A DNA stretch of 63,465 bases, the filler included, from Folioceros fuciformis (lineage: Eukaryota), in NCBI GenBank assembly GCA_049999805.1. It is 16 parts of 16 records of this genome, joined end to end, with 100 filler letters (N's around TTAATTAATTAA, not from the genome) between each part and the next. Parts side by side here need not be neighbours in the genome. Positions count along the whole stretch, not along the records: positions 21,905 to 33,579 come from JBNGIO010005696.1; 15 more parts are not named here. One strand, given 5' to 3'. The position numbers were made by a program, and so were the translations under genes. The notes under the pieces are model-generated. The model was not told the DNA's origin. It was given only the letters and a program-made list of their open reading frames with translations, and searched no databases. Below, piece by piece: positions 3,753 to 56,406 of this stretch (position 1 is its first letter; every line of letters starts with the position of its first letter).

Positions 3753-4205
3753 TGTGCCGGACAAGCTTCAAAACCCCCGCAACAAGCTTCGGGACCCGCG
3801 GGACAAGCTGAAAAAGACGCAAGGGAGGGTCGCTAAGCCCTAAATACAAGTCCGGGCTGCCCTACTATTACGCTTACAGATACATACATCGTGTATGTAT
3901 TACAAACCTGTTTAGATACTGTTGAGGCGTGTACTGCGTGAAGAATGCCCTAAACCGGCAACTGGAACTGAAACAATACCCTAAATTGGAAACTGCTGTG
4001 TTCTTCGTGTTACGCTGCTGTCAGCATGCGACAAGTGTTGCAAACCTGTACACATCCTGCCTGGATGGAGGCTGGAGAGCTCTGGACGTGTCGGCTTTGC
4101 TGGAGCAGTCCTAGGAGCACTGGAGGAAGATGTCATGCGAGACGGTAGAGCTGAGGATCGAAGAATAGGTGCAGGAGAAGGAACTAGAATTGTAAGGCTG
4201 TAAAC
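3753..4205. promoter_or_regulatory. Shared divergent promoter region of RPL34 and eRF1
   Basis: 453 bp between divergent ATGs. Three CCCTAAA telo-box-like motifs (3838, 3948, 3979) and a 9-bp inverted repeat ATACATACA-TCG-TGTATGTAT (3880-3900). Confidence 0.5.
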
Positions 4206-5516
4206 ATGGGGGACTCTGTGGAGACAGATAAGAATATCGCGATATGGAAGATAAAGAAGCTGATCAAGGGGCTGGAATCTGCACGAGGAAATGGCACCAG
4301 CATGATTTCACTCATTATGCCACCCAGGGATCAGATATCCCGGGTGGTGAAGATGCTTGGAGAGGAATTTGGCACAGCGTCTAATATCAAGAATAGGGTG
4401 AATCGGCAGTCGGTGCTTGGAGCCATCACCTCTGCTCAGCAAAGGTTGAAGTTGTTCAATCGAGTGCCGCCGAATGGTCTAGTTTTGTACACCGGTACCA
4501 TTGTGATGGATGATGGGAAGGAGAAGAAGGTGACCTTCGACTTTGAGCCTTTCAAGCCGATTAATGCATCTCTGTATCTGTGTGACAACAAGTTCCACAC
4601 TGAGGCCCTGAACGAATTGCTGGAGTCAGATGATAAGTTCGGGTTCATCGTTATGGATGGAAACGGTACTTTGTTCGGGACTTTGAGTGGAAACACTCGG
4701 GAGGTGCTGCACAAGTTCACTGTTGATCTGCCGAAGAAGCACGGTCGGGGAGGGCAGTCAGCACTTCGATTTGCCCGGCTTAGGATGGAGAAAAGACACA
4801 ACTATGTGAGGAAGACGGCTGAGTTGGCAACGCAGTTTTTTGTGAATCCGGCAACCAGTCAGCCGAACGTATCTGGTCTGATTTTGGCAGGATCTGCTGA
4901 TTTTAAGACTGAGTTGAGTCAGTCGGACATGTTTGACCCTAGGCTTCAAGCCAAGGTTTTGAGCGTGGTGGATGTGTCGTATGGGGGGGAGAACGGTTTC
5001 AGCCAAGCCATTGAGCTGTCGTCTGAGATTCTGTCGAACGTGAAGTTCATTCAGGAGAAGAAGTTGATAGGAAGATATTTTGAGGAGATCAGTCAGGATA
5101 CTGGGAAATACGTGTATGGAATCGAGGACACATTGAAGGCTTTGGAAGCAGGTGCGGTGGAGATTTTGATAGTGTGGGAGAACCTGGATGTCCATCGGTA
5201 TGTGTTGAAGCATTCTATCACAGGTGATACCATCATCAAACATTTGAACAAAGAGCAGGAAGCGGATCAGTCTCAGTTTAGGGATCCGGAAACGCAGGCT
5301 GAACTCGAAGTGCAGGACAAGCTGTCTCTGCTGGAGTGGTTTGCTAACGAGTACAAAAAGTTTGGCTGTACACTTGAGTTTGTCACAAATAAGTCGCAAG
5401 AGGGTTCCCAGTTCTGCAGAGGATTTGGTGGGATTGGAGGGATTTTGCGCTATCAACTTGACATGAGAACCTTTGATGAGCTGTCTGATGATGGGGGTGT
5501 CTACAACTCAGATTAG
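4206..5516 (+). CDS. ERF1: Eukaryotic peptide chain release factor subunit 1, intronless, 436 aa
   Basis: GTS, TASNIK(N), YLCDNKF and GRGGQS motifs; C-terminal [11 protein letters not shown]; full length. Confidence 0.98.
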
Positions 5517-12208: not shown

Positions 12209-12745
12209 TGAAATTTCTCGAGTTAAGCAACAATTATTTCTACGGGAAGCTCCCCNNNNNNNNNNNNNNNNNNNNNNNNNNNNNNNNNNNNNNNNNNNNN
12301 NNNNNNNNNNNNNNNNNNNNNNNNNNNNNNNNNNNNNNNNNNNNNNNNNNNNNNNTGAAATTTCTCGAGTTAAGCAACAATTATTTCTACGGGAAGCTCC
12401 CCTCGAGATGGGGAGAATTACCACTCACCGACTTGAATCTGGGCTATAATAACCTGTCGGGACCCATCCCCGATATGAATGTGAACATGACTCGACTCTA
12501 CTTGAACAACAACGGCTTTGAAGGCCCCCTTCCGGCTTCAATGGGCAGCCTCTCCGGCCTTCAAGTAGCCAATCTCGCGGACACCAATGTTGAGGGATCA
12601 ATTCCTGAATGGTTTACCAAGTTGTCACAGCTCACAGTATTCATTCTCGGGGGCACCAATGTAGAGGGATCCATTCCTGAAGGGTTTACCAATTTGTCAC
12701 AGCTCACAGTATTCAATCTCGGGCACACCAATGTAGAGGGCTCCG
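12209..12745 (+). pseudogene. Fragment of an extracellular plant LRR receptor-like gene (about 5 LRRs)
   Basis: Plant LRR consensus LxLxxNxLSGxIP (LNLGYNNLSGPIP, LYLNNNGFEGPLP, LADTNVEGSIP). No start; bounded by a LINE and a repeat. 12209-12255 is duplicated across a 100-N gap. Confidence 0.85.
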
Positions 12746-13787
12746 GGTATCAGGCTGTGCTTAAACCTAGTACCTAGTTTTCTCCAACACGTTTCAGATT
12801 CCTGGAGAAGCCCGCCATTGACATACTGGCAGCTCTTCACACACAGTCGGGTGGAGGAGGTGAAGGTCAGACTGCACGCCGAGGTTTCGAAGGATATGCA
12901 TTGAGCTTGTGATGGGGACATTTGCCATGGTGGCAGGATAGAAGACAGCAGGCTCTTGTTTAAGTTTTTCTTGCACCTCCGATCTCTTGGTTTCGCATCA
13001 CTATGTCCAAGGATCAGTACCCAACATCAGTTGCAAAGACTGCATCGCTTTATGGGTTGGGTGAAAGTACTCGTCATGATGGCCTTCGACTAACCTCATG
13101 GCAGAACCTGCCTTGTGGGCTGTGAAAGGGATCTTTCTACACAACCTGCGCGTGGCCATCTCCAGCCTTGGTGAAAGCTGGGAGGTCAGTGGAAATATGC
13201 CATCCCATTCCCGTCTTCAAGATATGGACGGGAATGGCTTGCTACGGTTTCTACGACCCCATGCACTCAAGTCCCTCGAGAAGCTATTCACTTGTAAGAC
13301 GTACGTGGCCCAAGCAGGGATTCGCTCCAGAGGCCCTCCAGGCGTTTGAAGAAACAGCCGTAGTTTACTCTTATGAGCGACAGTAGGTATATACTTCTTC
13401 TCCCATGCTTTACGGCCACTTCGTAGGTATTTACAATAATCTGGAGGAGGAGTTTTTCGCTCCGCTCGGGCCCGGTCAACAGGGTCATCTACACAGGTCG
13501 GTTCAACATTTCTCCCATCATCTAGTACATCAATCGGAGGCAACTGTCCCTCAATGACAGGCTGGCTTGCTCTCCATGCTTCATATCTTGCTCGAGCACT
13601 GGGGATGTAGTCAGGAAAGTCGTCAGAACCATCCTCCTCCTCTGTGTCTGTGGACTCTTCCCGATAAATGGGATTGGGATTGTCTCCAAAAATCTTCCTA
13701 TGTAGTTCCAGCCACTTAACCATGGGATCACCCATATACTCATCTTCACCAGGCTCCCAATATTGCTTGTCAGCCTCGTCAAAAATT
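12744..13787 (-). repeat. Copy 1 of a ~1.05-1.2 kb interspersed repeat carrying an unknown acidic ORF
   Basis: Near-identical to 55201-56235 and, reverse-complemented, to 56533-57566. Confidence 0.9.
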
Positions 13788-14329
13788 CTTGCAGAAGGGA
13801 TGGAACCGTTGAAATTGTTGCTCGACAAATTAAGAGTGACCAAGTGCTGTAGGCCTCCAATTGCAGGAGGGATGGGGCCGCTGAGCTCTTGCCCTGGCAA
13901 AGTCAAAGCAACCACTGTCAAAGGACTGTTCGTCAAATCGCACTTGACACCGAACCAGAAGCAAGCAGCCCCAGTGTTGTTCTCACTCCAGAGCGCAAGG
14001 ACATGGTAAGGATCGCTCGTGATGCCTCGCTTGAAATCCAGAAGAATGGACACCTCTGTTGCGTTCAAACTAATGGACTGGTTGCCAGAGATATCTTGCA
14101 GCTGCCTTTCCCAGGTGGCGCGGTAAACAGTGCAACAGGACGTATGAACGTTGGCAAGTCTATTTGTGTGGTTGTGCGTGCCATTCCGACTATTCCGCTT
14201 GAACTGACGTGATGACGCGAACGATGAAGCATAGACTCCGGATCCTGCAGCACGGACACCGAGATGCAGACTGAAGAGCCCCACAACGAGAAGCAGGTGC
14301 ATCAGCTCCATGACCGGGACGTCTGACAT
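13217..14329 (-). CDS. Chimeric 370-aa ORF: signal peptide + LRRNT + 2 LRRs fused in frame to repeat-derived sequence
   Basis: Hydrophobic N-terminus, EVSILLDFKRGITSDP..LALW..C.WFGVKC (LRRNT), LPGQELSGPIPP, LNLSSNNFNGSIPS; from 13787 onward the sequence matches the repeat. Confidence 0.7.
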   Translation of the reverse strand: MSDVPVMELMHLLLVVGLFSLHLGVRAAGSGVYASSFASSRQFKRNSRNGTHNHTNRLANVHTSCCTVYRATWERQLQDISGNQSISLNATEVSILLDFKRGITSDPYHVLALWSENNTGAACFWFGVKCDLTNSPLTVVALTLPGQELSGPIPPAIGGLQHLVTLNLSSNNFNGSIPSARIFDEADKQYWEPGEDEYMGDPMVKWLELHRKIFGDNPNPIYREESTDTEEEDGSDDFPDYIPSARARYEAWRASQPVIEGQLPPIDVLDDGRNVEPTCVDDPVDRARAERKTPPPDYCKYLRSGRKAWEKKYIPTVAHKSKLRLFLQTPGGPLERIPAWATYVLQVNSFSRDLSAWGRRNRSKPFPSIS

Positions 14330-14610
14330 GCGCCCCGCTCAACGAGAGGCACAGACAGTTCCTCCACTACCGGGGATGCCTCACAAGAGCCCCACACCAA
14401 GAAGCAGAGGCAGGACGTCCAAGACCAGGGACCTCTTACAACAGCGCCCACAACGGCGTAGAGAAGTGGAGGCAGCTTGTCCATGACTGGAGATGTCTCA
14501 CAAGAGCCCCACAACCTGAAGCACGTTTTGCGGCCGAAATCCAATCCCTGCAGACATGACACGAGACTCCCACAAGGACGAGCCCCACAATGAAGCAGAG
14601 GGAAGGAAAG
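14270..14610. repeat. Degenerate ~57-bp tandem repeat overlapping the LRR signal-peptide region
   Basis: Recurrent AAGAGCCCCACAAC..GAAGCA core at about 14277, 14333, 14388, 14445, 14505, 14565-14581. Confidence 0.6.
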
Positions 14611-18443: not shown

Positions 18444-20210
18444 ATAGTTTCACTCCCACTCAGGAGTTAGGTTATTTATAGTCGCATAGTTTTAGCAACC
18501 ATTTAATTCTAATTCTATTGACTGCCCTAAGAAACTTCAACTAAAATTGAAACTTCAAAAGAAACTTTGCCGCCGAAGAAGAGCTATCCAAAAAAATGTT
18601 TGGACTTCACCTTCTTCGTGGCCGGTCCGCTGCCGTGAGAGCCTGATCCGCGCGAGATCGCCAGCTGCTAGTGATGCGCGCACATTTGCGCCGCCGACAC
18701 CCTCTGTTGGGGATGCTTGTTACTTGCAGCTGCTGGATTGCAGCTCGCCGCCACTGCGGCTCTCAGCTGCTAGCTGCCCTGACACTGGATGCGCGCTGCT
18801 GTTGCGCACTCAGATCTCTTCTGCATCTTCGAAATGAGCCTGATGGCTCCTTCTGGATTCAGCTGGATCGGGCAGCCAGATTGGCCTGCCTGACCCGGAG
18901 CGCAGTCCCATTCCATGAGCGTGCTGGCTGTGCTTCGTCTTGCCTAGCGCCTTGGTCAGGACATCTGCTGTCATGAGCCCTGTGGGGCAGTACACTACTT
19001 AGATGAGTCCACTTGCAACCTGCTCCCTGATGAAGTGATGCTGCACGCCGAGATGCTTCGTGCGTGCATGGAATCTAGGATTTTCTGATAATGCTATGGC
19101 GCTTTGATTGTCACACATCAATCTTAGCGGCAGTGGTTGAAGGGAACCAAGATCTGTAAGTGCTCCCACTGCCCAAATGGCCTCTTTACATGCTTCAATT
19201 AGAGATTTGTATTCTGACTCTGTTGATGACAATGCAACAGTTGATTGTCGCTTGCTGCTCCAGGAGATTGCACTCCCTGCCAAAGTGAATACATAGCTTG
19301 AGATGCTGCGGCATGAATCCTGGTCTCCTGCCCAGTCGGCATCGCTGAATGCTTTGAGAGTAAGTGGATCATCTGCATCTCCACTGTAGAGGAGGCCCCA
19401 GTCTTCTGTAGCTTTTATATACCTGAACAGCCTCCTCATTGCTAACCAGTGAGCCATGGCAGGGTTTGACAAAAACTGGGACAGAATTCCCACAGCATAC
19501 GCAAGATCTGGTCTTGTGCCCAGCATCAAATACATCACGCTTCCACTCAGAGAGGCATATGGAAATTCTGCCATCAGTCTTACTTCTTTTGCAGTTAGCT
19601 CTGCCTCTCCTTGTTGTGCACTATATTTTACGTTCTGTTCAAGAGGAGTTGAAACAGGTTTGCAATTTTGCATCTGGAAACGTGCTAGGATCTGCCTGAT
19701 ATATTTAGCCTGGTGCATAAAAATACTCCTTCTTTCTCTGTCTCTTTGAATTTGCATCCCTAGGCAGAATGTTAATGCACCTGAGTCTGTCATCTTGAAT
19801 GCAGACTTGAGCTGCTCCTTCAGCTCTCCAATCATATTCAGGCTATTGGACATAATAAGTATGTCATCAACATATATTGCGAGTGCCAAGAAATTCTTGC
19901 CCTCGCCCTTCTTTACATAAACGTTACCGTCTGCATGAATAGGCAGGTAGTTATGAGAAACTAGGAAGCTATGTATACGTGCAAACCATGCACGAGGACT
20001 TTGCTTAAGTCCATATAAGGTCCTTTTGAGCTTGCATACAGTCTGCTGTTTAGTGTCAGAAGGTAATAATCCAGCAGGTGGCTCCATATAGATCTCTTCA
20101 TTCAGATGTCCGTACAGAAACGCTGTGGTAACATCGAGCTGTTCAAGCTCATAATTGTGGACAGCTGACAGGGCCATAAATAATCTGAGAGTGCTCATCT
20201 TTACTACAGG
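18444..20210 (-). mobile_element. Ty1/copia 3' part: RT-RNase H, 3' UTR, PPT and start of the 3' LTR
   Basis: QLDVTTAFLYG, LYGLKQSPRAW, YVDD, DADWAG, STESEY, ARTKH. PPT TGAGTGGGAG (18462-18453) is followed by TGAAACTAT; the same LTR start is seen at 17960. Confidence 0.92.
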
Positions 20211-21804: not shown

Positions 21805-21904
21805 NNNNNNNNNNNNNNNNNNNNNNNNNNNNNNNNNNNNNNNNNNNNTTAATTAATTAANNNNNNNNNNNNNNNNNNNNNNNNNNNNNNNNNNNNNNNN
21901 NNNN

Positions 21905-23540
21905 CTCCCAAACGTCTCTGGCATCCAAGAAGGCTTTCATCCGGGCACACAAGCTCTCATAATGGGAAGCCTTGCCATCAAAACGATCCTTCTCCTTAAA
22001 TTCACTTGAATAAGCAGCTCCAAAAGAAGCACCAGTAGCAGTAGCCATGATTTGAGAAGAAGGGACAGTTGGGATTCTAGATTGTAAGGGCTGTGGATGT
22101 GAAGGACTAGCCCCTAACCGTGCCAACTCTTGAAGTGACCAAGTAATTTGAGTATGAAGTCTAAGTTGTTCCTCTACTTCAAAATCAGTGGAAGCATGTG
22201 CATCTACAGGCTCAAGCTCAACTGGTGAGTCCAACTCGCTGCTGGATGATGAGGCCGACATACACAATCTAGCAAAAGACGGGTAGGCTACCTCTAGAGA
22301 AGACTTAAAAAAAAAAACTATTCTAAAGTCCTTTTTCTAAGAAACTCAAATTGAAGTTAATTAAAAAGGAGCTTCTAAAAAAAAGTTTTTTTTTTTTAAG
22401 GAAAAAGGCCCAACGCAACAAACCGCCAACTTAAACACGACGGGGCGAACCGCCAACTTAAAAGGAAGGCCGAAACGCTAAGTTGCCGCAACTCGATGCA
22501 CACCGCGACACGGGGAAAACGGGCACAAACTCTAAGCACATGTGGAAGAAGAATCCTCACGGGCAACCTTCCAGGCACCAATCCAGATCTGTAAACCACA
22601 CGAGAGCAGGGGAGCGCCTAGCAGTGAACAGCAAAAACTAGGCCAGTGCCTGCACCCCTTCAGATCTGAAACTGCTTCAGAGGAGAGGAACATCCCGCCG
22701 CGGGCGAGATGGCTTCAACGATGGCAAATACATGGCCACCAACGGGTCTCTGGTAGAAAGATCAGGCGCCCACCCTAGCCGTGAGGAGTGTGCTGCAAAA
22801 TTTTTATCCACAAGATCTTCAACTGCTGAGAATCGCCTGCACACCTCTGCGTTTAAGTGAAGAAGAGACTCCACAATTCCATTCACCACAGTCTTCAGAT
22901 CTATGAGAGAAGCACGGGATGCATGAATCGCAACAGAAACCTTCCAGCAAAGCTATGAATCATCTAAATTGTGGACACGTGAGTCCGTAGCAAAATTTTT
23001 CCTTGTATCCCTTGTGTAATTCCTACACGAGTTCCGAAGAAAAGGTTGCCTCTGACTCTTGTGCACAATCCTATTATGATCCCTAGAGCAAGGTAGAGTG
23101 TCCCCCAAGAATCCAGGTTTCCTAATAGCCTGCCTAAATTGTGATCTCAGATTAGAAGAAGGCTGGAAGAAAAACTCTGAAGACCGATGGCCTCTACCCT
23201 TTGCCATTATAAATTCTCATGTAGGTGTTTCACGATTCATCCCTAATTAGGACATCTACAATAAAACACCACACTCTTTGATCAAGGACTAAACATAAAG
23301 TCTCACTAGCAACATGCCAGATGAGACTCATGCCAATAGCAATATGATCAAAGCATCTTCACAAAAAAAACAACCATGAGCTCTGACACCATGTTTGTAA
23401 TAGCGGAAGCTTATAGCAAAAGTTGTATATTGAATAATAATAAAACATTTGTGTATGTGTTTATATACTAGGTTAAGTCTAACCCTAAATAAAAATTAGA
23501 CTAACCTACCGAGTTAGGTTAAAACAATTCCACCTTAACA
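21905..23540 (-). mobile_element. Ty1/copia 5' end: LTR 23540-23392, PBS, ~1.1-kb leader with extra ORF, gag N-terminus
   Basis: 149-bp TG..CA LTR, PBS TGGTGTCAGAGC (23391-23380, tRNA-iMet-like), gag SEFKEKDRFDG..RMKAFLDARDVWE. Confidence 0.88.
22677..23207 (-). pseudogene. Extra ORF (ORF0) upstream of Copia gag, 177 codons with one internal TAG
   Basis: ORFs 23207-22953 and 22889-22677 are in one frame; homologous to 42206-41667. Confidence 0.75.
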
Positions 23541-23555
23541 TAACCCTAAACCCAT

Positions 23556-23792
23556 AACCTGTCACCGTCGGCAAGGAAGACTTTCTCTGTTTTCACTGCG
23601 AGCAGATGTCGCCACTCTATGTGACCCTCCACCCGTGCCATTTCCTTCCCAGCCTTTTCAATGCAAAGTCCGCAGCACATCACCACCATCACGTCAGGAT
23701 CACTCTCCAGGAGATACATCGCCAAACAGATTCACGCCTCCAGCACAAGACACAATCTCCGGAACCCAGAACCCTGCTCCCATCAATGGGTC
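23556..23792 (-). pseudogene. C-terminal half of an Fe/B12 (BtuF/FepB-like) periplasmic-binding-protein gene
   Basis: DPLMGAGFWVPEIVSCAGGVNLFG, then after a frameshift DPDVMVVMCCGLCIEKAGKE...WRHLLAVKTEKVFLADGD; matches the W.DPL..AG.WVPE...AGG / DPDV.V.MPCG / AV..G.V...DG family pattern. Confidence 0.78.
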
Positions 23793-26700
23793 TGTTAGAA
23801 ATCCATAGGGTTTTGTAACAACGCATCTAGACTAGCATGCTGTAAGTATATCCCAGGATATATAGGATAATACCATGTTCGGGATATCGTTTGTCCATAC
23901 CGAGGTATTGTCATGTTTTAAAGTTTCTTTGTGTTGTGTACAGGCCCATGGAGACTATGTGTTTGTTGTAAGACCTTGTGCAAGTAGGTGAAGCTTGGCG
24001 TTCGTTTAGGGAAGTCATCTTGTTCGGCCGCAAAGGACGGGAACATGGAGACACGTCTTCTCGAAACTTATGTGGTGGAGAAGTTCGGAGGGAAAAACTT
24101 CACATTATGGAAGCTGAAAATGAAGATGCTTCTTATCAAGGAGGGAGTATGGAAGTTCGCTGACAAGGGTCTCGATGTGGCACCCATAGAGAAAGACCTC
24201 AACAAAGACGGACGGGCCTTGGCAACAATCTTGTTGAGTGTCTCAGATGACGTTCTCTCTCAATTGAGCAAATGCGCAACGTCACAAGAAGTGTGGATCA
24301 CGCTTTGCAATACATACGAAAAGAAAAATATGGTAAGTTCGATGCTGTTGGAACAACAACTTGCGAACTTCACGATGGCCACAGGCGACACGATCCAGCA
24401 ACATGTCAACAAGTTAAAGACCTTAGTGGACCAGATGAAGGCGATGGACATCAAACCGACCGAGGAAAGGATCCTCGTGGTGTTGTTGTGTAGTTTACCG
24501 CCAATCTACGAGCCATTTGTGTCGGCCTTAAGGACAACGGTCGCGATGCAATCAAGCGACAAACCGCCGTCGTTGGATGAGGTGGTCGGATTGCTATTGC
24601 AGGAGGGATTGGAGTTTTCAAACAAGAAAGAGAAGATTGATGACGCCATCCTTTTCACCAAGAAAGACAAAGCAAAGGCAAAGTTCAAGTCTAAGGACGA
24701 GTCTAAGTCTACAGACGAGAAGAAGAAGGATGGTACGAGCCGTACGACGAAAGGATCTTGCTATTATTGCAGGATGCCATGTCATCACGCCAAAGAATGT
24801 AGAACTAGGTTGGCAGACGAGTCGAAGAAGGAGAAATCCTCTCAAGCCAATCAAGTGAGTCAGCAACCTCAACAGGAACAATCATTTGTGGCTAGCGATG
24901 GAGCTACTTCATCGACGAAGGATGAGAATCTTTATCTCGACTCTAGTGCATCTCAGCACTTCAGTTACAACCTTCTAGGGTTCACTGGCTACACTAGACT
25001 CTCAAAGGGCCATACAGTGGCACTCGGTGACAATACCTCACATGATATTGAGGGGAAAGGAGTCTTACACATTCAATTGCAGGGCGGCAACCCCGCACGT
25101 ATAGAGAATGTGCATCATGTACCTCATCTCGCTAAGAATCTTCTTTCTGTTGCGCGCATTGCAGATGCAAGTCATGAAATAGTCTTCAACTCCACAGGCT
25201 GTCGCATTCAACTTGTACAGCCTAAGCCGTCACACGTGGTTGCTCGTGGTGTTCGTGTGGGAAACCTGTACAAACTTTGTGCTTTCATGAGAAAGCAAGC
25301 TTGTACGTTCCTGGCAAGTTCACACAACCACATAGAGTCTGCCAATTTATGGCATCAACGTTTGGGCCACATTGGAGTGGACAAACTCAAGCAGATGACG
25401 ACTCATGACATGGTGACGGGATTAGATTTGAAGGATATTACTGCAACACAATTGTGTCCAGGATGTCAGATGGGGAAGCTAAATCGCACAAAGTTTTCTA
25501 AAGTTGTGACACATTGTGCGCAGAAGGCACTGGAATTAGTCCACACTGACGTGAGCGGGCCCATGCGGAACCCTACACAAGGTGGGAATCGCTACATGCT
25601 CATCTTCGTTGATGATTTTACAAGGAAGACGTGGACTTACCTTTTGAAAGAAAAATCTCAGGTGTTCCAGACATTTAAGGAGTGGAAGAGTATGGTGGAG
25701 ACCGAATGTGGTGAATGCCTTAAGATGCTTCGGAGCGACAATGGAGGAGAATATGTTTCTTCTCAGTTCCAAAGTTTTTGTCAGAAAAATGGCATCAAAC
25801 GACAACTCACGATTCCGCACACCCCGCAGCAAAATGGAGTCGCGGAGCGGAAGATACGGAGCCTCGTGGAAGCATCCAAGTGCATGCTGTTTCACAGCGG
25901 CTTGCAGGTCAACTTTTGGGGAGAGGCTGTCATGACAGCAACCTATGTGTTGAATAGAGTTCCGACAAAAGCCGTAACTAGTATGACACCAGAGGAAGCG
26001 TGGTCCGGTATAAAACCTAATATTCAACATTTGAAGGTTTTCGGTTCCACGGTCTACACTCGTATCCCGAAGGAGAGCCGGACCAAATGGGATGCTAATG
26101 GAACGAAGTGTCTCCTGCTTGGCTATTCAGATGTAGTCAAAGGCTATAGGTTATACAATCTTACTACGAAGAAGGTCTTTTTTAGCAGGGACATTGTTTT
26201 TCAGGAGGCTGTCGAGTTGATGCCTGGAGTGGGCCCTTCAAATGTACCATCTACCGGAGATAATGGTGTGCCTTCTCCAACTAGCTGCCATCTTGACCCA
26301 CCTGATCCGATGTCTGACGACTCTTCTCAACCTGGTGACAAAAGGGGGGAAGGGGGAAACACTCCTAATGTCCCTACAGTTGAAGACGTTGTTGGAGCCT
26401 TACCCCCAGCTGCTGATGAAGATTGTGATATCGAGGGGGGCAGGAGCGAAGCTTCCGATGTTTCTAAAGAAGTAGCAAACTATCTTGTTATAGCACCGCA
26501 ATCGAAATTACGTAGATCCACTAGGTCCGTAAGCCTTCTCAGAGGCTTATAGACTCCATCAATGGATGTGTATAGGATGAGCTAGCATGTTTTACAGATG
26601 TTGAAGAACCTCAAAGCCTGACAGAAGCGTTAGAAGGTCTAAAAGCAAAGGAATGGAGAAAAGCCGTGGACAGTGAGTACAACTCAATTATTAGAAATAA

Positions 26701-38751: not shown

Positions 38752-41700
38752 ACCTCCACACCTGAACAAGATCATTGAAAGGCTCCTCCAACACATCATG
38801 TAAAGGAGTAGCATCATCCACAACAATAGGAAGATCAACATCTAACACTGCGTGTAATGTAATGTCCTTAAAGGTAACACTGCGTGCTAGCGTAAGGTTA
38901 TGACTATGAGGGTCAAACAACTTGTAAGCTTTGGATTCTTCTGAATAGCCAAGAAATATGAGAGGCTTAGCCCTATGATCTAACTTACCCCTCTTGGCTT
39001 CAGGATTGAATGCAAAGGCAAGAGACCTAAAGACCCGAAGATGAAGTAGACTAGGCTTGCGGCCCCAAAAAACCTCATAAGGTGTTCGACCAGGAAGGGC
39101 TGAGGTCACAATCCTGTTCAAAATATAAGTTTCTGCAACCACAGCCTCAACCCAAAAAGACTTGGGAAGACCTACCCAAGCCAACATGCTTCTTGTCATC
39201 CCCATCAAGGTTTGATTCTTTCTCTCAGCAACACCATTTTGTTGTTGTGTATAAGGAACTGAAAGTTGGCGAATGATGCCATAATGGTGAAAGAGATCAT
39301 CAAACCTGTGACTTGTGAATTCGTCATCATTGTTTGTGCAAAAACACGTAACTAGATGTCTTGTTTGTCTTTGAACCATAGGGATCCAAGAGGAAACCTG
39401 ATCAAAGGCTTTACTCTTCAGGTGTAAGGGAAAAGTCCAAGTGTAACGAGAAAAATCATCTACCAATGCTAGGTAATACTCAAACCCACTAAGAGATTTC
39501 ATTGGAAGTTTTCCTGCAAGATCTGCATGTATCTTCTCAAGGGTTGCTTTAGGTCTAGTAGCCATCTGATTTTTAAAAGGTAGCTCCTTCTATTTTGACA
39601 AGATGCACACACTACGGGGGACAAGGTGCTTAAAACATGAGGGTAGCTTCTCACAGTAGCAGCTTGAGTGAGACATGAAATGGAGTTTAGATTTATTGAC
39701 ATGATCTAAGCGTGCATTCCACAAATTAACCTAAAGAGGATAAGAAGCAACCAAAGCCTGAACATTGTAAGTAGAGGGAGGATCTAGCTGATAGAAGTCA
39801 TCCTCCAAGGTAGCTTTGGCAAGATACTCCCATGCTTCTCAAACTTTGTAAATATAGCAATGCTTATGCTCAAAGCTAAACCCATATTGACCAGTGGAAG
39901 TGACTGCCTTTACAAACAACAAATTTTTACTCATGGTCGGAACATACAGCACATCAAATAGCTGCAATGAAGTGCCATCTAACAAAGGTATGCGAGCCTG
40001 GCCACTATCTTCAACCTCAAGTACTCGTGAATCTCCAACATAGACTACATGAAAAGGAGTTTGATGACTGAATTTGGAGAATACCTTCTTGTTATTATAG
40101 ATATGTGAGGTGGAACCTGAATCAACAAACCACATAGAAGAATTCTCCTTGCTTGAGGTAAGACATACAGTTAGAACTGAATTATTGCTTTTATGTTGCT
40201 ATCGTCTAGAAGGTGCTCCCTTGGTACAAACATGAGCCACAGGGCAAGCCTCCTTCTTAGGTTCACCTGCCTTCTTCTTCTTGTAATCACACTCCTAGTC
40301 ACCAGGAATTTGGCACCAATTGCAAGTGCCTTGTCTTTTCACTATAGGGGTAGAAAACTAGCTTGGCTCCCCCTTTCTTAGGCTTATTATTACGCCATGG
40401 TCCTTTCCCTTTTGCAACGTAAAACACCTTCTCTCCCCGGAGGCAAGACGAAGGCCTTGACTTTTGGTGGCTCTGTTCTTTTTGCAGGAGAGCCCCAATC
40501 AAGTCATTCAACGTTATCAGAGAAGGTATACCAGCACTCACAGCCACATAAGAAGCTTGAATGGAGGTATTTTGACTTGACACGAAGTTCTGATAAGAAG
40601 CTGGTAAGCTGGATAGCAATTGTGCAACTGCATCCACTTTTGTCATTGTGCACCCAAGAGCAGCCAATTGAGATCGCAGATGGTGAAACTTCACAATATG
40701 TGGTCCCACTGGATCTCTATCACGCAGCTTAAGGCCATAGAACTCATTTCTTGCATCTACAAGTGTAAGAATGTTCTAGACCTGATATGTGTCCTTCACT
40801 TGTGTCCAAACTTTAGCAACTGTTGGTAAGGACTCCACTTTAGTTACTATTGTTTCATCCAAACCTGAAAGTAGGATAGCAAAAGCTATTTTGTTTCCCT
40901 TTTTCCACTCATCCACCATTTCTTATGTGACTCCAGGAGTAGTGGGATCAGGCTTAGGAAAAGAACCGTTAACATACTCCCACACATCTATGGCATCCAA
41001 GAAAGCCTTCATCCGGGCACGCCAACTTTCAAAATAATAAGATTTTGAATCAAAATCGTCCTTTTCTTTAAACTCTTTAGAATATGTAGCTCCTAGTGTT
41101 GTTAACACACTGTTGGCAGATGTTATGATAGGAGGAGTAGGAACCATAGGAGAAGGTCTTGACTATACAGATGGAGGAGGGAGAATAGGACTAGCTCTCA
41201 GTCGCGCTAGCTCTACCAATGATAATGTGGGTTGTGCATTTAATCTAGCTTGTTCTTCAACTTCTGAATCAATAGAGAAATATTTATCTACAAGGTCAGA
41301 CTCGTCTATAAAATCTGACTCACTACTAGAAGATGAGGCTGACCTGCACAATCAACTAGAAACGCAAAGAGAATTAAAGCTTTGCCTGTAAGTAACTCCA
41401 ACTTTTTTTTTTTTTTAAACCTAACTTAGTTTTCTATTGATGTAGAAAGAAACAAAACAAAATAGTTTTAAGGCACGAAACGCCACGCCTCTTCACAAGA
41501 AAGCACGATAACATACTCCACATGCACAGGTGGCAGCAGAATTAGAAAGTTGGTAAGAGACACCGAATTGAAACACATCTATTCAATTTTGCTAGTTATG
41601 CATGGCAGGGGCGACGCCAAATCAAGAGTCCACCGAAACGGCACCACAACACCTATGCACATCCCTTTAGATCTGAAAAGGTTGTAGGAGGCCAGCATCT

Positions 41701-42553
41701 CGCACCTGGCGAGATGGCTTCAGTGACGGCGGATACATAGCTACAACAAGATTGCGTACAGATGTGTCAACCCGCGCCTGCCCCAGCTTTGAAAATAGCA
41801 AAGAAATTGATGCTGAATTCTAAGCCAAAGAATCTTCAATCGCTGTAAGTTGTCGGCTGATCTCGACGTTTACTTTGAGCAATATGTTCACGATCGTGTG
41901 TGTTGCAGATTGTAGGTTCAACAGCAGCGCCACAGAAGAGCAAACCTCCTCAGCAACTTCCTACCACCGCTCCAAGCCACCAAAATCGTGAGTACACTTC
42001 GGTGCCTTAGAGCTGGTAGAATGGATTCGATGTAGACTGCGAGATGAACAATGATCCTTGTATAAGTAATCAAATTGTCCCCTTAAATTAGACGGTCCAC
42101 CAAGCCCATCATTAAAGTTCCTAACAGCCTGTTGTTCCTATGACTCGAGGCTGACAAGAGTCTGCGCTCGAAATAGAAGTGGCCGACGCCCTCTTCCTTT
42201 CGCCATTAAGTATTTTCATGTAGAAGTATGAATAGATTTTCATAGAAACACTAGAATAATCTAATACATCTACAGTGTGCAAGCATTGACTAGAACCTAG
42301 ACACATAAGCTCCCATCCAGCAAATTGTTGGGTGAAACTTATGTGTAAAGACATCTGACCTGTGCTTGCACATCAAAACAATACCCTTGGCTCTGATACC
42401 ATATTTGCATTGCGGAAGCGCATGTGTGCAGAAAAAATTGTAAGAAGTGTATTTAATAAAGTATTAAGCTCGTTTATATACTGAAAAAGTTAACCGTAGT
42501 TGAGCTAACCTAACCACTAACCTAGGTCAGGGTAAAACCAACTTACTCTAACA
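38752..42553 (-). mobile_element. Ty1/copia 5' half: LTR 42553-42402, PBS, leader with ORF0, gag, protease, integrase (decayed)
   Basis: PBS TGGTATCAGAGCCAAGG (42401-42385); EFKEKDDFDS..WRARMKAFLDA; WFVDSGSTSH; LEKIHADLAG; QQNGVAERKN; FLGYSEESKAYKL. Confidence 0.92.
41667..42206 (-). pseudogene. Extra ORF (ORF0) upstream of Copia gag, 180 codons with three internal TAG and no frameshift
   Basis: MAKGRGRR...LLNLQSATHTIVNILLKVNVEISRQLTAIED...VVAMYPPSLKPSRQVRDAGLL; homologous to 23207-22677. Confidence 0.78.
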
Positions 42554-50009: not shown

Positions 50010-53000
50010 CCAGTTGGGTTCATACTAGACTAGTTCTAGTTATTAGTGAACTTAGGATAGTGTAGATTATCCCATATTGAACCTGGAAGTTGTGTAGCCC
50101 TAAATGTACTACTTAAATGGAGACCTCGGGCCTCCATAGTAAGACAGTGGTGATGTGTATTGTTTTCATGGTTGTGATCACCAATACCACCCTCTCTTCT
50201 CTCCTCTCCTCTCCTACACTTGCACGTAGATTGGAGTCGATCCTATTGACAATCTCCACCTACAAATTCCCGTGGTGAAGAGGACTCACCATCTGACATT
50301 GGATAGGTGTATGGAGGGGCATTTACAGACTGATCGGGGTCCACGGACGAGCCTACAGGATGAGAATCCAGAGCTGGCTTAGGAGATGACAACTCTCTAA
50401 AGGTAACACTACGAGAGAGTAATTTTTGAAGTTTGAGGGTCGAACAGTTTGTAAGCTTTGAACTCTTCTGAGTAACCCAAGAAAATGAGGGGTTTAGCTC
50501 TAGCATCTAACTTCCCCCTCTTGGGTTCAGGAATATAAGCAAATGGAGATCCAAATACTCTAAGATGTAGAAGACTGGGTTTCCTACCCCAAAAGGCTTC
50601 ATAAGGAGTTTGACCTAGCAGAGCTGTAGTAACCACGCGATTCAAAATATATGTGGTAGCAACAATAGCTTCAGCCCAGAAGCTTTTACGTAAGGATGAC
50701 CACGAAAGCATGCTTCGTGTCATTCCCATTAGAGTTTGGTTCTTACGCTCAGCAACACCATTCTGTTGCGGAGTGTATGGAACTGATAGCTGCCTTATGA
50801 TGCCAAACTACTGGAAAAGATGATCAAACCTGTTGCCTGTAAATTCACCTCCGTTATTTGTACGGAAGCTCTTTACTAATTTTCTTGTTTGACGTTGAAC
50901 CATTGGAATCCAGGAGGCAATGGTATCAAACACGTCACTCTTAAGCTTAAGAGGAAAAGTCCAAGTGTAGCATGAAAAATCATCAGTCAACGTGAGATAA
51001 TATTCAGCACCGCCCAGAGATTTCACACGGAGTTTACCAGCTATGTCTGCATGAATTAACTCCAAGACAGATTTGGCTCTGGTTGCTATTTTATTCCTGA
51101 ATGGTAACTCTTTTTGCTTGGATAATATGCAGGAGCGACATGCCTCAAGATGCTTAAAGCAGGGAGGAAGCTGTTCTCTGTAACAGTTAGACAAGGACAT
51201 GAAGTCTAACTTAGACCTGTTAACATGTCCTAAACGCGCATGCCAAAGACTTGCTTGTAAATTACTGGCAGCCACAAGAGCCCTCACTTTGGAGTGATGA
51301 ATTGTTATTAATTGATACAAATCATTGATTAGTACAGCCTTAGCAACAAAGACTTCTGGAAGAGATTGCTGGTAGATATAACACTTCTTGTTCTCAAACT
51401 TAAAGCCATACTTCTTACTCTGAACAAGAGCTTTGATGGATAGAAGATTCTTACTCATCTTAGGGACAAAAAGTACATCATCCCAATGCAAGACTGATCC
51501 ACCAGAAAGAGGTATGTTAACTGAACGAGTTCCTTTAACCTTCACACCACGAGCATCACCTACATAAACTAGTTGAGGTGATTGCTGTTTGTGTAGGGTG
51601 GAGAAAAGTTCTCGGTTGTTGCAGACATGAGTAGTTGCGCCAGAGTCCATGAACCAAGAGGGAGACTGATCCTTATAAGAGGTCAGGCAGACTGTAAGTA
51701 CAGTACTCCCACTCTTATGCTGAGATCCAGAGGTCTTATTCTCCTTAGATGTAATGTGAGCTTCAGATCTAGGCTCCTTCTTAGGCTCACCTGCCTTCTT
51801 TTTCTTGCAGTCACGTTCCCAGTGACCGGGAATTCGTACCACTACGTTTGGTCGGAAAGGTTGAAGAGGAGGTACAAGATGTGGGGGTCTTCTTGCCCTT
51901 GTCTTTTACTTTCCACTGTCCTTTTCCTTTGGAGGCAAACAGGACTTTCTCCCCTCGCAGACGAGGAGCTGAATGGGTACGTAGGTGGCTTTGTTCTTCT
52001 TGCAAGAGAGCTCCTATGATTTCATTCAGATTTAATGATGACGGTTGGCCACTTGCTACAGCTTATATGCGTCGCGCAAGGTGGCATTCTGACTGGAGAT
52101 AAATGTTTGATAGGACGAAGGAAGGCTGGCTAAGAGTTGAGCAGTCATCTCCACCTCAGTGATCTTGGTACCTAACACGGCAAGCTGTGCCCGTAGGTGC
52201 CTCAACTTAGTGATATGAGCTCCAACCGGTTCCCCTTCCTTCAACCTAAGACTGTGAAAATTATTACGAGCTTTGATCATCGTACAAACATTTTGCACCT
52301 GGTAAGTATCAGACAGCTTCAGCTATTTCCAAGGTGTCCACTTCAGTTATAGTCGACTCATCCAGTCCAAATAATAGAATAGCAAAAGCTTCTCTGTTGC
52401 CTTTCTTCCACTTTGCTATCTCATCAGCTGTTGGTTGTGGTATTGTTGTGCTAGGTACCTTCAATGGATTGGGTATGGATCCATCCACATACTCCCACAC
52501 GTCCCTGGCATCCAGGTTAGCTTTCATTCTCGCCTTCCAACTCTCAAACCTGATGGGTCTCCCGTCAAATCTATCTTTCTCCTTAAACTCACATGAATAA
52601 GGGGATCCAACAGATGTAGATGGGGAAGCAACTGGAATGGATGCCATGACGGGCTGAACATGTACTGGATTAACAAGAGTGACAGGAAGTGATGGATCAG
52701 AGTACAGCAAAGAAAATTGGTCCAAATCTGAATCACTATCTGAGTCTACCTGCAACATAAGCTACACACTCATAAGGGTACAACTAGCCTAACGAGATAG
52801 GTAAAGGTATGAACCGGTACATTAAGAAAAACGTTTCATGAATTCTAGTTTTTAGTTCTTAAGGAAAGACCCTAAAACTATGTCATGTGAATTTTTTAAC
52901 TGAATAACGGTTCACATTTCAATGGCAGGGGACCAAGAATGCAAGAGACGTGACTCCAGCAACGAAGAGGCAAACAGCAATCGGATCCCGACACATGGAA

Positions 53001-53393
53001 GCAACAGCAAAAGGTACAACTCAAGAATGTGCTTGTTGTGCGCTCCCTTCTCACCACGCTAGATCCCAAATGCTGTAATGCACCGCTTCAAATCTGGGTA
53101 GTTGTTGCACCCTGATGATCCCCAACACTTGATTCCTCCCTCATGGGAACAAGTGATTTCAGATACAGGGCTGCAACCGGCTGAACAGCAGAGATTGAAG
53201 ATTCTCTAGAAACCTTGAGACTAGCAATGTCATTGGCAAGTAGACTGACTTCTGATTGGAGAGATTCGACATCAGAAGAAATCTGTTCAAGTTTTGGTTG
53301 AGTCTGAACAAGCAACCGAGTCATCAGGGCTTCAATGTTGTCCAACTTGGAAGAGAATCTCTTATCTGCAAAAGAACGTCTTGTAGAGTCCAA
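50010..53393 (-). mobile_element. Ty1/copia: leader ORF, gag, protease, integrase, then PPT and LTR with no RT/RNase H
   Basis: CEFKEKDRFDG, GHWERDC, WFMDSGATTH, LWHARLGH, LELIHADIAG, FRTNNGGEF; AGGTGGAGAT-TGTCA at 50261-50247 resembles a PPT plus LTR start. Confidence 0.88.
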
Positions 53394-53493
53394 NNNNNNN
53401 NNNNNNNNNNNNNNNNNNNNNNNNNNNNNNNNNNNNNTTAATTAATTAANNNNNNNNNNNNNNNNNNNNNNNNNNNNNNNNNNNNNNNNNNNN

Positions 53494-55209
53494 AGAGGAC
53501 CGGGTGGTAGGAGGTAAACATGTCTTGACAGCTACATATGTGTGTGGTGGCTCCGGAGTCTAAGAACCAACGACATGTGTCTGTTCTGGTAAGGGTGAGG
53601 CAGACTGCTAAGATGGAACTGGCTGACGACGACTTGGTAGTTGTGGTAAGGTGAGACTCGTTTCTGGGAGCTTCTCTGCGTGGCTCGCCTACCTGCTTCT
53701 TTTGGCATTCACTTTTGTAGTCACCAAGATTTTTGCACCAGTTACATGCTCGTTTGGCTGATCTTCTATCAAATGATCTGTTTTGTGAAAATTGTCGACT
53801 TGGGAAGCCCGAGAAGCTTGGAGAAGGTGGACCTCTTCGCTTGGGGAAACCTCCTTATCCTTTACCACGCCTATTTTCCTCGACCTCTGGAAGTGAAGAA
53901 GGCATGGCTTACCCCAACATTATTACGTGAGGTGCCGATTCTGCTGGATTCTTTCTTGAGCAATGCTGAAATAACATTTGAAAAGGTGTAGGCTGGTAGT
54001 GCGTTTGCGCCTACTGCCTGAAGTTTGGTGATGACGGTGCCGTTGCTGGAGAGCTTCGCTCGCAGGGACCGCAAGATGTTTACGTGTTGCTCGACGCTCT
54101 CACTGTCCNNNNNNNNNNNNNNNNNNNNNNNNNNNNNNNNNNNNNNNNNNNNNNNNNNNNNNNNNNNNNNNNNNNNNNNNNNNNNNNNNNNNNNNNNNNN
54201 NNNNNNNNAGCTATCTGGTCAAGGGTAGCTAGTGTGGTAGAGGTGAGTGAGGGCCGTGGCAGAGTGGCGTATGTGATTGACATTAGATCATGTTCTTCTA
54301 ACAGGGCTGTGATTCTCATTTGCCAGATATCGTAATCGCTTTTGTTGAATCGATCACAGTCTCTAAATTCTACTTTGGTGGTGTTAATCATCGTAGAAGT
54401 GGGATTAGGGACATAAGAGGCCATGGCTGATTTAATTGCAAGTTTCTTTGTAGGGGGCTTTGTGGTATGAAGGGAGAGTGATCAAATTTGGGCATAAAAG
54501 GCTGCGGGGCCTCGAATTAGGACTAGCAAAAAAGGTGAGGAGTGCGTGATTTACATTTGTATGTAGAAGGGAATCTGATTGATTGCGATATGCAGGGCCG
54601 AGTTGTGACTCTATGCAGTCCAATTGAATTCTCAAGTACTTAGGTGTGGCAGGTACGCTGGCTAGGGAGGAAGCGGTGTACGTGCATCCGTGTGAGTGAG
54701 AGATGGGCTTGATCGGGGCGGCCGTGGCTGGAATGCTGATAGGTGTGCTGGTAGTTGGCGTAGTCCACCGACGGCGGAGTTGCTCGTCGTGGATTTGCTT
54801 CTCTGCTATGTTGATGAAAGATCTCCCTTCAGGAGTGGGAGCGCGGTGTATTGAAGTGAAAGTCACGGAGGTGCGTTGCCTTGCCATGTTTTCCTGATTA
54901 GGATCTCTGGTCCGCTGGATTCTTCAATTGCTGCTGACCCATCCTTGTGAAGTGTGGAGCGCCAGTGACGGGAAGCAGTGGCGAAGCCATGAGGGGACGA
55001 GCCTGGGGCTCTGATATCATGTAGCGGGACAAGAATCCCTTGGAATTGATGATTCGAGCATTAATGATACGATTTAAATACAAAGTGTATTTAGTTATAA
55101 CGACGATTGATCAATTAGTAACTTGAGTAACCTACTTAACTGTTCGAACCGCTAAGCTGTGTTTAACTAGTGAGTTTATGAAACTGTCCTAATTCGGTAA
55201 CGGGTATCA
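53494..55209 (-). mobile_element. Ty1/copia 5' end: LTR ~55209-55020, PBS, 151-aa leader ORF, gag
   Basis: PBS TGATATCAGAGCC (55019-55007); gag VEFRDCDRFNKSDYDIWQMRI; MRSLRAKL..; WFLDSGATTH at about 53570. Confidence 0.85.
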
Positions 55210-56406
55210 GGCTGTGCTTAAACCTTGTTTTCTCCAACACGTTTCAGATTCCTAGAGAAGCCCGCCATTGACATACTGGCAGCTCTTCACACACACTCGG
55301 GTGGAGGAGGTGAAGGTCAGACTACACGCCGAGGTTTCGAAGGATATGCATTGAGCTTGTGATGGGGACATTTGCCATGGTGGCAGGATAGAAGACAGCA
55401 GGCTCTTGTTTGAGTTATTCTTGCACCTCCGATCTCTTGGTTTCGCATCACTATGTCCAAGGATCAGTACCCAACATCAGTTGCAAAGACTGCATCGCTT
55501 TATGGGTTGGGTGAAAGTACTCGTCATGATGGCCTTCGACTAACCTCATGGCAGAACCTACCTTGTGGGCTGTGAAAGGGACCTTTCTACACAACCTGCG
55601 CGTGGCCATCTCCAGCCTGGGTGAAAGCTGGGAGGTCAGTGGAAATATGCCATCCCATTCCCGTCTTCAAGATATGGACGGGAATGGCTTGCTACGGTTT
55701 CTACGACCCCATGCACTCAAGTCCCTCGAGAAGCTATTCACTTGTAAGACATACGTGGCCCAAGCAAGGATTCGCTCCAGAGGCCCTCCAGGCGTTTGAA
55801 GAAACAGCCGTAGTTTACTCTTATGAGCGACAATAGGTATATACTTCTTCTCCCATGCTTTACGGCCACTTTGTAGGTATTTCCAATAATCTGGAGGAGT
55901 TTTTCGCTCCGCTAGGGCCCGGTAAACAGGGTCATCTACACAGGTCGGTTCAACATTTCTCCCATCATCTACTACATCAATCGGAGGCAACTGTCCCTCA
56001 ATGACAGGCTGGCTTGCTCTCCATGCTTCATATCTTGCTCGAGCACTGGGGATGTAGTCAGGAAAGTCGTTAGAACCATCCTCCTCCTCTGTGTCTGTGG
56101 ACTCTTCCCGATAAATGGGATTGGGATTGTCTCCAAAATTCTTCCTATGTAGTTCCAGCCACTTAACCATGGGATCACCCATATACTCATCTTCACCAGG
56201 CTCCCAATATTGCTTGTCAGCCTCGTCAAAAATTGCATCCCAGTCAGGGTTCTCATCACCTAAGTCATAATCCTAATCGTAACTGTACTCGTTGACTATA
56301 AGATCTGGCTCTTCTCCTTCACGAAGCTTGTCTTCAATTACAAGTCTCCAACAGCCATTATCATCATGTCGAAGATATCCCTCCCCTGAATACTCTTTAC
56401 TGGGTT
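55201..56406 (-). repeat. Copy 2 of the acidic-ORF repeat
   Basis: Near-identical to 12744-13787 and extends ~170 bp further. Confidence 0.9.

Follow-up and report, generated by a model that had tools for sequence, protein, structure and literature searches.

A probable accessory gene between the primer-binding site and gag in a Ty1/copia sub-lineage of Folioceros fuciformis

Does a lineage of Ty1/copia retrotransposons, elements with long terminal repeats (LTRs), in Folioceros fuciformis encode a protein between its primer-binding site (PBS) and gag? The question is raised by an open reading frame (ORF), here called ORF0, that occupies this interval in two diverged elements, copies A and B, within a 63,465-nucleotide stretch of DNA from assembly GCA_049999805.1 (the window). 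According to the REXdb survey (PMC6317226), Copia elements are structurally uniform, and their characteristic extra ORF is the 3' ORF of SIRE elements. We estimate a probability of roughly 0.7 that ORF0 is, or was in active ancestors, a genuine and undescribed accessory gene of one Ty1/copia sub-lineage, lying between the PBS and gag in the sense direction. Two diverged elements, and probably a third (element E), retain the frame. The three copies in the window are dead or truncated insertions that have gained stops since integration.

The window consists of scaffolds chained by linkers of the form 44 N + TTAATTAATTAA + 44 N (for example, at 21805-21904 and 53394-53493), and plain 100-N and 10-N gaps are also present. 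Because sequences on either side of such a join need not be neighbours, copy A is possibly not continuous with the integrase and reverse transcriptase (RT) that follow it; it is secure only from its LTR to about gag codon 119 (position 21905), where a linker lies. Copy B has no N gap from its LTR through integrase. The parts of the two elements are as follows.

23392..23540, minus strand: copy A 5' LTR, 149 bp, with TG...CA ends; contigs diverge exactly at 23540 and 23392
23468-23459, minus strand: copy A TATA-like box GTATATAAAC, in the LTR
23380..23391, minus strand: copy A PBS TGGTGTCAGAGC, one mismatch to the 12-mer used
23208..23379, minus strand: copy A leader, from the PBS to the ORF0 start, homologous to the copy B leader (z 6.3)
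22677..23207, minus strand: copy A ORF0, 176 codons and TGA, with a predicted basic disordered N-terminal half, a predicted helix at residues 87-143, and the C-terminal motif VAMYLPSLKPSR
22953..22955, minus strand: the only in-frame TAG of copy A ORF0, at codon 85 of the minus-strand translation
22262..22676, minus strand: copy A non-coding spacer with A/T runs, no frame open across it, and weak homology to the copy B spacer (z 4.2)
21905..22261, minus strand: copy A gag N-terminus (ATG at 22261), with a DUF4219 match, cut at the linker
42402..42553, minus strand: copy B 5' LTR, 152 bp, with a TATA-like box at 42481-42472
42390..42401, minus strand: copy B PBS TGGTATCAGAGC, no mismatch to the 12-mer
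41667..42206, minus strand: copy B ORF0, 179 codons and TAA, with in-frame TAGs at codons 23, 82, and 129
40302..41351, minus strand: copy B gag, Retrotran_gag_2 (E 2.2e-29), with three in-frame stops and no ATG at copy A's start position
38753..40198, minus strand: copy B protease and integrase, with rve and SH3_retrovirus matches, contiguous with ORF0 without an N gap

Both elements, each within a gap-free block, share the order LTR, PBS, leader, ORF0, spacer, and gag. The LTRs, which are 72% identical, begin and end with TGTTA...CAAACA in copy A and TGTTA...CAAATA in copy B, and TGGT(G/A)TCAGAGC follows directly. The 12-mer against which the PBSs were compared is one that we take to be the initiator tRNA-Met PBS. 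Leaders measure 172-183 nucleotides (42207-42389 in copy B), and the spacers between ORF0 and gag are 330-415 nucleotides long, A/T-rich, and without an open frame. The two gag proteins are 57.6% identical, and both match DUF4219 in Pfam. The gag type, the TG...CA LTRs, and the tRNA-Met-type PBS (most Copia elements use tRNA-Met; PMC6317226) identify the host element as Ty1/copia. No 3' LTR was found for any copy in the window.

The minus-strand translation of 23207..22677 reads MAKGRGHR...VAMYLPSLKPSRPRRDVPLL, ending in PLL, and that of 42206..41667 reads MAKGRGRR...VAMYPPSLKPSRQVRDAGLLQPFQI; read on the plus strand, 22677-23207 is interrupted by many stops. An earlier note, made from the sequence alone, had described a frame at 22677-23207 with a single TAG. 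Its coordinates and the TAG are borne out, with the correction that the frame lies on the minus strand, where it comprises 176 codons and TGA. Also as described there, copy B has the same start (MAKGRGRR) and a similar length. It aligns with copy A in one frame over its full length, with 35.3% amino acid identity over 184 columns (tblastn E 8e-16 and 1e-16). The start codon lies in a MAKGRG.R context in both copies. Sharing of the VAMY.PSLKPSR motif and of the amphipathic helix segment is upheld, and the location between PBS and gag is upheld by the PBSs at 23391-23380 (copy A) and 42401-42390 (copy B) and by the Pfam gag domains downstream. The A-B identity of ORF0 (35%) is near the 38-39% between the copy B integrase and an integrase beyond copy A's join, which is possibly not copy A's. 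All four internal stops of ORF0 in the two copies are TAG, as are two of the three in copy B gag, whereas TAG makes up about 30% of stop triplets across the window; we infer a mutational bias, not a change of code.

Several comparisons indicate that the frame was maintained as a coding sequence. In 5000 dinucleotide-preserving shuffles, copy A ORF0 would be expected to contain a mean of 7.2 in-frame stops and has one (P of one or fewer, 0.0032), with 8 and 12 in its other frames; copy B has three against a mean of 7.5 (P of three or fewer, 0.038), with 6 and 9 in its other frames. The frame is therefore open to a greater extent than chance would produce. The protein similarity between A and B amounts to 68.2 bits in frame (pairwise blastp), compared with 38.1 and 23.5 bits when both copies are translated in the same shifted frame. 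Among identical residues with degenerate codons, 31 of 60 in ORF0 are encoded by different codons, similar to the gag N-terminus (34 of 68). Five synonymous differences and one replacement separate the two copies in the C-terminal VAMY.PSLKPSR motif. In the core of the helix, 9 of the 15 identical residues differ synonymously, and replacements are mostly conservative. Protein-guided NG86 estimates for ORF0 are 0.63 for nonsynonymous (dN) and 1.79 for synonymous (dS) divergence, giving a ratio of about 0.35, compared with 0.14 for the gag N-terminus.

Public contigs of the same organism provide a second comparison. Contigs from runs X1, X2, and X3 were compared with 21905-23560. The site of copy A's TAG is a sense codon in four of four X1 contigs and four of four X2 contigs, through a first-base change, and in run X3 it is sense for a depth of 8.3 of 19.9. 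Among the differences listed, three of the six replacements between copy A and the contigs carry copy B's residue in the contigs. Together, the sense codon and the copy-B-like residues imply that copy A in the window is a decayed member of its family. Of the 12 indels listed among contigs at a likeness of at least 80% (there are 3 more), the spacer contains 8, and the leader and the LTR 2 each; none is in gag or in ORF0, which covers 32% of the stretch compared. A fourth run, X4, which we guess to be RNA, covers only part of the copy A LTR. On 21905-23560, C>T (61) and G>A (109) differences are greatly in excess in run X3, which resembles a bisulfite-converted library of the same sample.

A third instance may be present in element E, whose parts are as follows.

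53088..53393, minus strand: element E ORF0-like C-terminal part, 101 open codons (53393..53091) and TGA, its N-terminus lost at the scaffold linker
50412..52758, minus strand: gag of element E, with its ATG at 52758, and then protease and integrase, all after a spacer

The frame of element E ends ...VAALYLKSLVPMRE...QI-stop and is followed by a spacer of about 330 nucleotides and then by gag. It is the best non-self match of a profile of A and B among 1239 six-frame ORFs (E 0.14), and it scores 22-23 bits in frame in pairwise blastp with A and B. The stop of element E is in the position of copy B's (Q-I-stop), within a conserved nucleotide block, CAGATYTRAAG.GGTGCA, that occurs near the end of ORF0 in all three elements (22653-22690 in A, 41660-41700 in B, and 53080-53100 in E). 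This block holds the stop codons of B and E; the stop of copy A comes a few codons sooner, and its frame is not in register with theirs at the block. Because it combines a syntenic position, copy B's stop position, and the same predicted fold, the frame of element E is probably homologous to ORF0. Judged by integrase sequence (74% amino acid identity), element E is of copy B's lineage, and the gag proteins of the two are 38.6% identical. No further copies were detected in the window by nhmmer with a DNA profile of A and B. In both B and E, protease and then integrase follow gag, and neither block includes an RT; the RT near copy A is beyond scaffold linkers.

That RT, at 19002-20210, was considered for placing the lineage and was set aside; it is separated from copy A by linkers and may not belong to the ORF0 lineage. 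The integrase beside it is 38-39% identical to copy B's, no closer than those of elements lacking ORF0 (35-39%), so a search with this RT is uninformative about the lineage. Its best match, at 60% identity, is a 1486-amino-acid polyprotein with an ordinary gag N-terminus, and the others listed reach at most 48%.

A number of observations weigh against a coding function. A frame-blind, nucleotide-guided estimate of dN/dS, by a method that worked for gag, is 0.59 in the ORF0 frame and 0.63 and 1.2 in the others. The excess of nucleotide score in ORF0 is about 0.19 per base, compared with 0.23 and 0.28 in the leader and LTR. The N-terminal halves of A and B are just 30% identical. The similarity of element E is weak (the profile E value being 0.14), and around the motif a shifted frame scores 25 bits. 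Among the differences listed between copy A and the contigs, six in ORF0 are replacements and two are synonymous, and no constraint is seen; gag has the same pattern (seven replacements and one synonymous difference), which implies that these differences reflect decay after insertion. Only 40 of the 233 contig differences enter that listing. The window contains no copy that is intact from end to end; each is broken or truncated. No homologue was found beyond the window and the organism, so conservation is judged from three sequences. Finally, eight AUGs precede the ORF0 AUG in both A and B, which speaks against simple scanning. Selection on ORF0 appears only moderate. The earlier note's proposal of a selected accessory protein is thus well supported as to a coding past and less so as to selection, for which the frame-blind estimate is ambiguous.

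The ambiguous frame-blind estimate, and a nucleotide conservation of ORF0 that does not exceed that of the flanking leader and LTR, would also be expected if the region were a non-coding leader kept for RNA functions such as packaging, dimerisation, or translational control, with the open frame and the peptide similarity as by-products. The AUG richness of the leader fits this explanation, and so does the most conserved block, at the C-terminal motif, which extends past copy A's stop and scores in a shifted frame too. However, stop depletion is restricted to the ORF0 frame in A, B, and E, and the protein score in that frame is about twice that in other frames. As in gag, half of the identical residues are written with different codons, synonymous differences outnumber replacements in the motif by 5 to 1, and the indels listed avoid ORF0. 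In addition, no Rfam family reaches its threshold on 21900-23600: the matches are all sub-threshold and located in the A/T-rich spacer and the start of gag, and the best of them, in the spacer, scores 29 bits against a gathering score of 62.6. We therefore regard a purely RNA-based explanation as rather improbable.

The predicted ORF0 protein appears to have three parts: an N-terminal half that is strongly basic and disordered, a single long amphipathic helix (about 55-80 residues), and a short conserved motif, VA.Y..SL.P.R, at the C-terminus. The N-terminal half has a net charge of +10 and an isoelectric point of 11.3 in copy A, and a net charge of +6 in copy B. Hydrophobic residues recur every 3.5-3.6 residues in the helices of all three copies. 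For copy A, AlphaFold2 with a two-sequence alignment of A and B gives a mean predicted local distance difference test (pLDDT) score of 57, with a helix at residues 87-143 whose block means are 85-93 and with values below 50 elsewhere; for the fragment of element E, a single-sequence prediction gives a helix at residues 2-80 with a mean pLDDT of 85. Charge, periodicity, and AlphaFold2 thus agree with the basic N-terminus and long amphipathic helix that had been noticed earlier.

Database searches identified no relatives of this protein. No Pfam family matches ORF0 of A or of B at E values up to 0.1, and a profile search of the PDB returns just generic GCN4 coiled-coil constructs (E 0.04-0.5). 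HMMER found no ORF0 match among 1.84 billion representative proteins, and in a word-indexed protein library searched at near lengths none of 564 candidates scored. In metagenomes, a locus scan gave 250 pattern matches, none of which was confirmed, and a degenerate pattern of the ORF0 motif gave no matches; in viral contigs, none of 65 pattern matches was confirmed. Pfam, the PDB, and the protein libraries accordingly contain no match to an ORF of a known lineage or to a captured host gene, either of which would have contradicted the earlier proposal. From its sequence, ORF0 looks like a fast-evolving protein without known relatives.

LTR retrotransposons do capture host sequences (PMC7264820), and ORF0 might be a transduced fragment of a host gene with no function for the element. 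A lineage-specific gene could have been missed, since the host proteome is apparently outside the libraries searched (the eRF1 encoded in the window matches at 91% identity or less). Nevertheless, neither Pfam nor the 1.84 billion representative proteins include a relative, and transduced ORFs are found singly or as a few copies (PMC7264820), whereas ORF0 keeps its place, its frame, and its key residues in elements whose gag proteins are down to 39-58% identity. This constancy of position despite diverged gag indicates that ORF0 was retained for long while the elements were transposing, as opposed to a single capture event, and we consider a captured gene highly improbable.

How gag would be expressed behind ORF0 bears on the remaining alternative. 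The position of the gag start codon is not conserved: copy A has an ATG at 22261 and element E at 52758, and copy B has none there. Where conserved gag begins, B and E share an acceptor-like TGCAG|GT (41344|41343 in B and 52750|52749 in E). In the corresponding region (41350-41337 in B, 52757-52744 in E, and 22266-22253 in A), copy A has an ATG instead of the acceptor-like motif. ORF0 might on this basis be part of gag expression, as a 5' exon spliced to gag across an A/T-rich, indel-prone spacer resembling a plant intron, or as part of a removed leader intron (a GT lies 5 nucleotides after the PBS in both A and B), yet this deserves the least credence, because A and B share no donor near the end of ORF0 (the CAG|GTGCGA of B is absent from A and joins out of frame), the stop position kept in B and E suggests termination there, A lacks the AG of the acceptor-like motif, and the leader-intron version is compatible with a real ORF0 gene and hence only partly a rival.

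If ORF0 is an accessory gene, its protein would be made from full-length genomic RNA and would act on that RNA, most likely in cis, as a self-associating nucleic-acid-binding cofactor. The basic disordered arm would be suited to nucleic-acid binding and the long amphipathic helix to self-association, and candidate roles are packaging, chaperoning, and protection against silencing. Translation of Gag-Pol would then need a non-standard route, for instance a shorter or spliced mRNA, re-initiation, or shunting, because a leader of about 1.1 kb with eight upstream AUGs and ORF0 lies ahead of gag. We infer RNA binding and self-association solely from composition and predicted fold.

The leaders of A and B each contain eight ATG triplets where about four are expected (P 0.035 and 0.021), and one short upstream ORF overlaps the ORF0 start. 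Leaky scanning was considered as a route to gag and was not favored: ORF0 contains five and four ATGs in the two copies where nine are expected, a mild depletion and not an absence. The upstream AUGs and this mild depletion make simple or leaky scanning unlikely. A more specific and tentative proposal is that a bicistronic Copia lineage encodes, before gag, a cofactor resembling LINE-1 ORF1p or the virion-associated proteins (VAPs) of Caulimoviridae, composed of a basic tail and an oligomerising helix, with unspliced genomic RNA serving both as the ORF0 message and as the substrate for packaging, and Gag-Pol made from leader-spliced or shunted RNA. Traces of such an arrangement would be the AUG-rich leader and the acceptor-like TGCAG|GT of B and E.

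Comparisons with known systems place ORF0 closest in position to extra ORFs of Gypsy elements. In the REXdb survey, 5' extra ORFs are described for Gypsy Tat/Ogre elements and the characteristic Copia extra is of the 3' Sirevirus type, as the earlier note had stated (PMC6317226). The 5' sense-strand extra ORF (eORF-5'F) of Tat/Ogre elements resembles ORF0 in its orientation, its place in the interval between the 5' LTR/PBS and gag, its restriction to a lineage, and its high divergence (PMC6317226). The differences are that these elements are Ty3/gypsy and not Copia, that the Ogre ORFs are much longer, and that 57% of Ogre elements contain the plant mobile domain PF10536, which ORF0 lacks (PMC6317226). 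ORF0 of rice Retrosat2 (PMC3485330; mentioned in PMC4093653) is likewise an orphan between the 5' LTR and the retrotransposase ORF without relatives elsewhere; Retrosat2, compared here by description alone, is a Gypsy element with LTRs of more than 3.2 kb, unlike the Copia elements with LTRs of 149-152 bp considered here. By analogy, ORF0 would work like the Gypsy 5' extra ORFs, in no named family.

The env-like extra ORF of SIRE (eORF-3'F, Ty1/copia), the only one that the REXdb survey treats as characteristic of a Copia lineage, occurs in 74% of SIRE elements, with a sequence that varies greatly (PMC6317226). It is 3' of pol and much longer, whereas ORF0 is 5' of gag and not in the interval between pol and the 3' LTR. 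SIRE env-like proteins are reported to have transmembrane segments (PMC7264820), whereas the model of ORF0 shows a soluble helix with disordered sequence on either side. The REXdb survey scored only extra ORFs of at least 250 codons, a cut-off that a 177-codon ORF would escape (PMC6317226). A review discusses 3' sense and antisense ORFs and treats 5' ORFs in passing (PMC7264820). Full-text literature searches turned up no account of an ORF in this interval of a Copia element; the supplementary per-lineage extra-ORF tables of PMC6317226, which could name rare Copia eORF-5'F cases, were outside those searches.

No match was found between ORF0 and the Pfam families PF10536 (plant mobile domain), PF03078 (Athila ORF-1), and PF04195 (Transposase_28). 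Outside retrotransposons, the Caulimoviridae encode a VAP (ORF2 in badnaviruses), a small coiled-coil nucleic-acid-binding protein upstream of or beside the polyprotein. It is like ORF0, by analogy alone, in its length of about 130-180 amino acids, in its long helix with a basic proline-containing tail, and in the many short ORFs of its leader. However, the basic part of ORF0 is N-terminal, the elements are unrelated, and there is no sequence or Pfam match. ORF0 likewise has no Pfam match to caulimovirus or badnavirus VAPs or to LINE-1 ORF1p, and the PDB gives generic GCN4 constructs.

The window also contains an unrelated Copia family (F-type) in two inverted copies that are 97% identical, with PBSs at 55008 and 57750. 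Between the PBS and gag, this family has a 151-codon open frame, MARQRT..., that ends at the start of gag (54887-54432, minus strand, and 57852-58310, plus strand). It shows no similarity to ORF0 (z 0.3-0.4). Given this second frame, 5' ORFs may be more widespread among the Copia elements of this group of plants.

Other features of the window are independent of ORF0. An 854-codon open Copia frame for gag, protease, and integrase (23988-26552, plus strand) begins about 450 bp from the copy A LTR on the opposite strand and belongs to a different family, with an integrase 35% identical to copy B's. A segment of about 1 kb occurs three times at 97% identity (12744-13787, 55201-56234, and 57566-56533); it overlaps an ORF with a plant leucine-rich repeat N-terminal domain (13217-14335, minus strand), and two of its three occurrences are inside an inverted duplication (54460-56260 and 58310-56507). 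An uninterrupted eRF1 ORF of 442 codons with three eRF1 domains is at 4188-5516 on the plus strand. Its best matches, at 85-91% identity, are distributed evenly over mosses, liverworts, a lycophyte, ferns, angiosperms, and Closterium, which indicates a streptophyte host to which no annotated species in the library searched is closely related.

With a conserved 5' accessory protein, the biology of Copia elements would gain a class of genes, and one would have to ask how ribosomes reach gag behind ORF0. Such a protein would also show that short extra ORFs are missed by annotation thresholds, especially in poorly sampled plant lineages.

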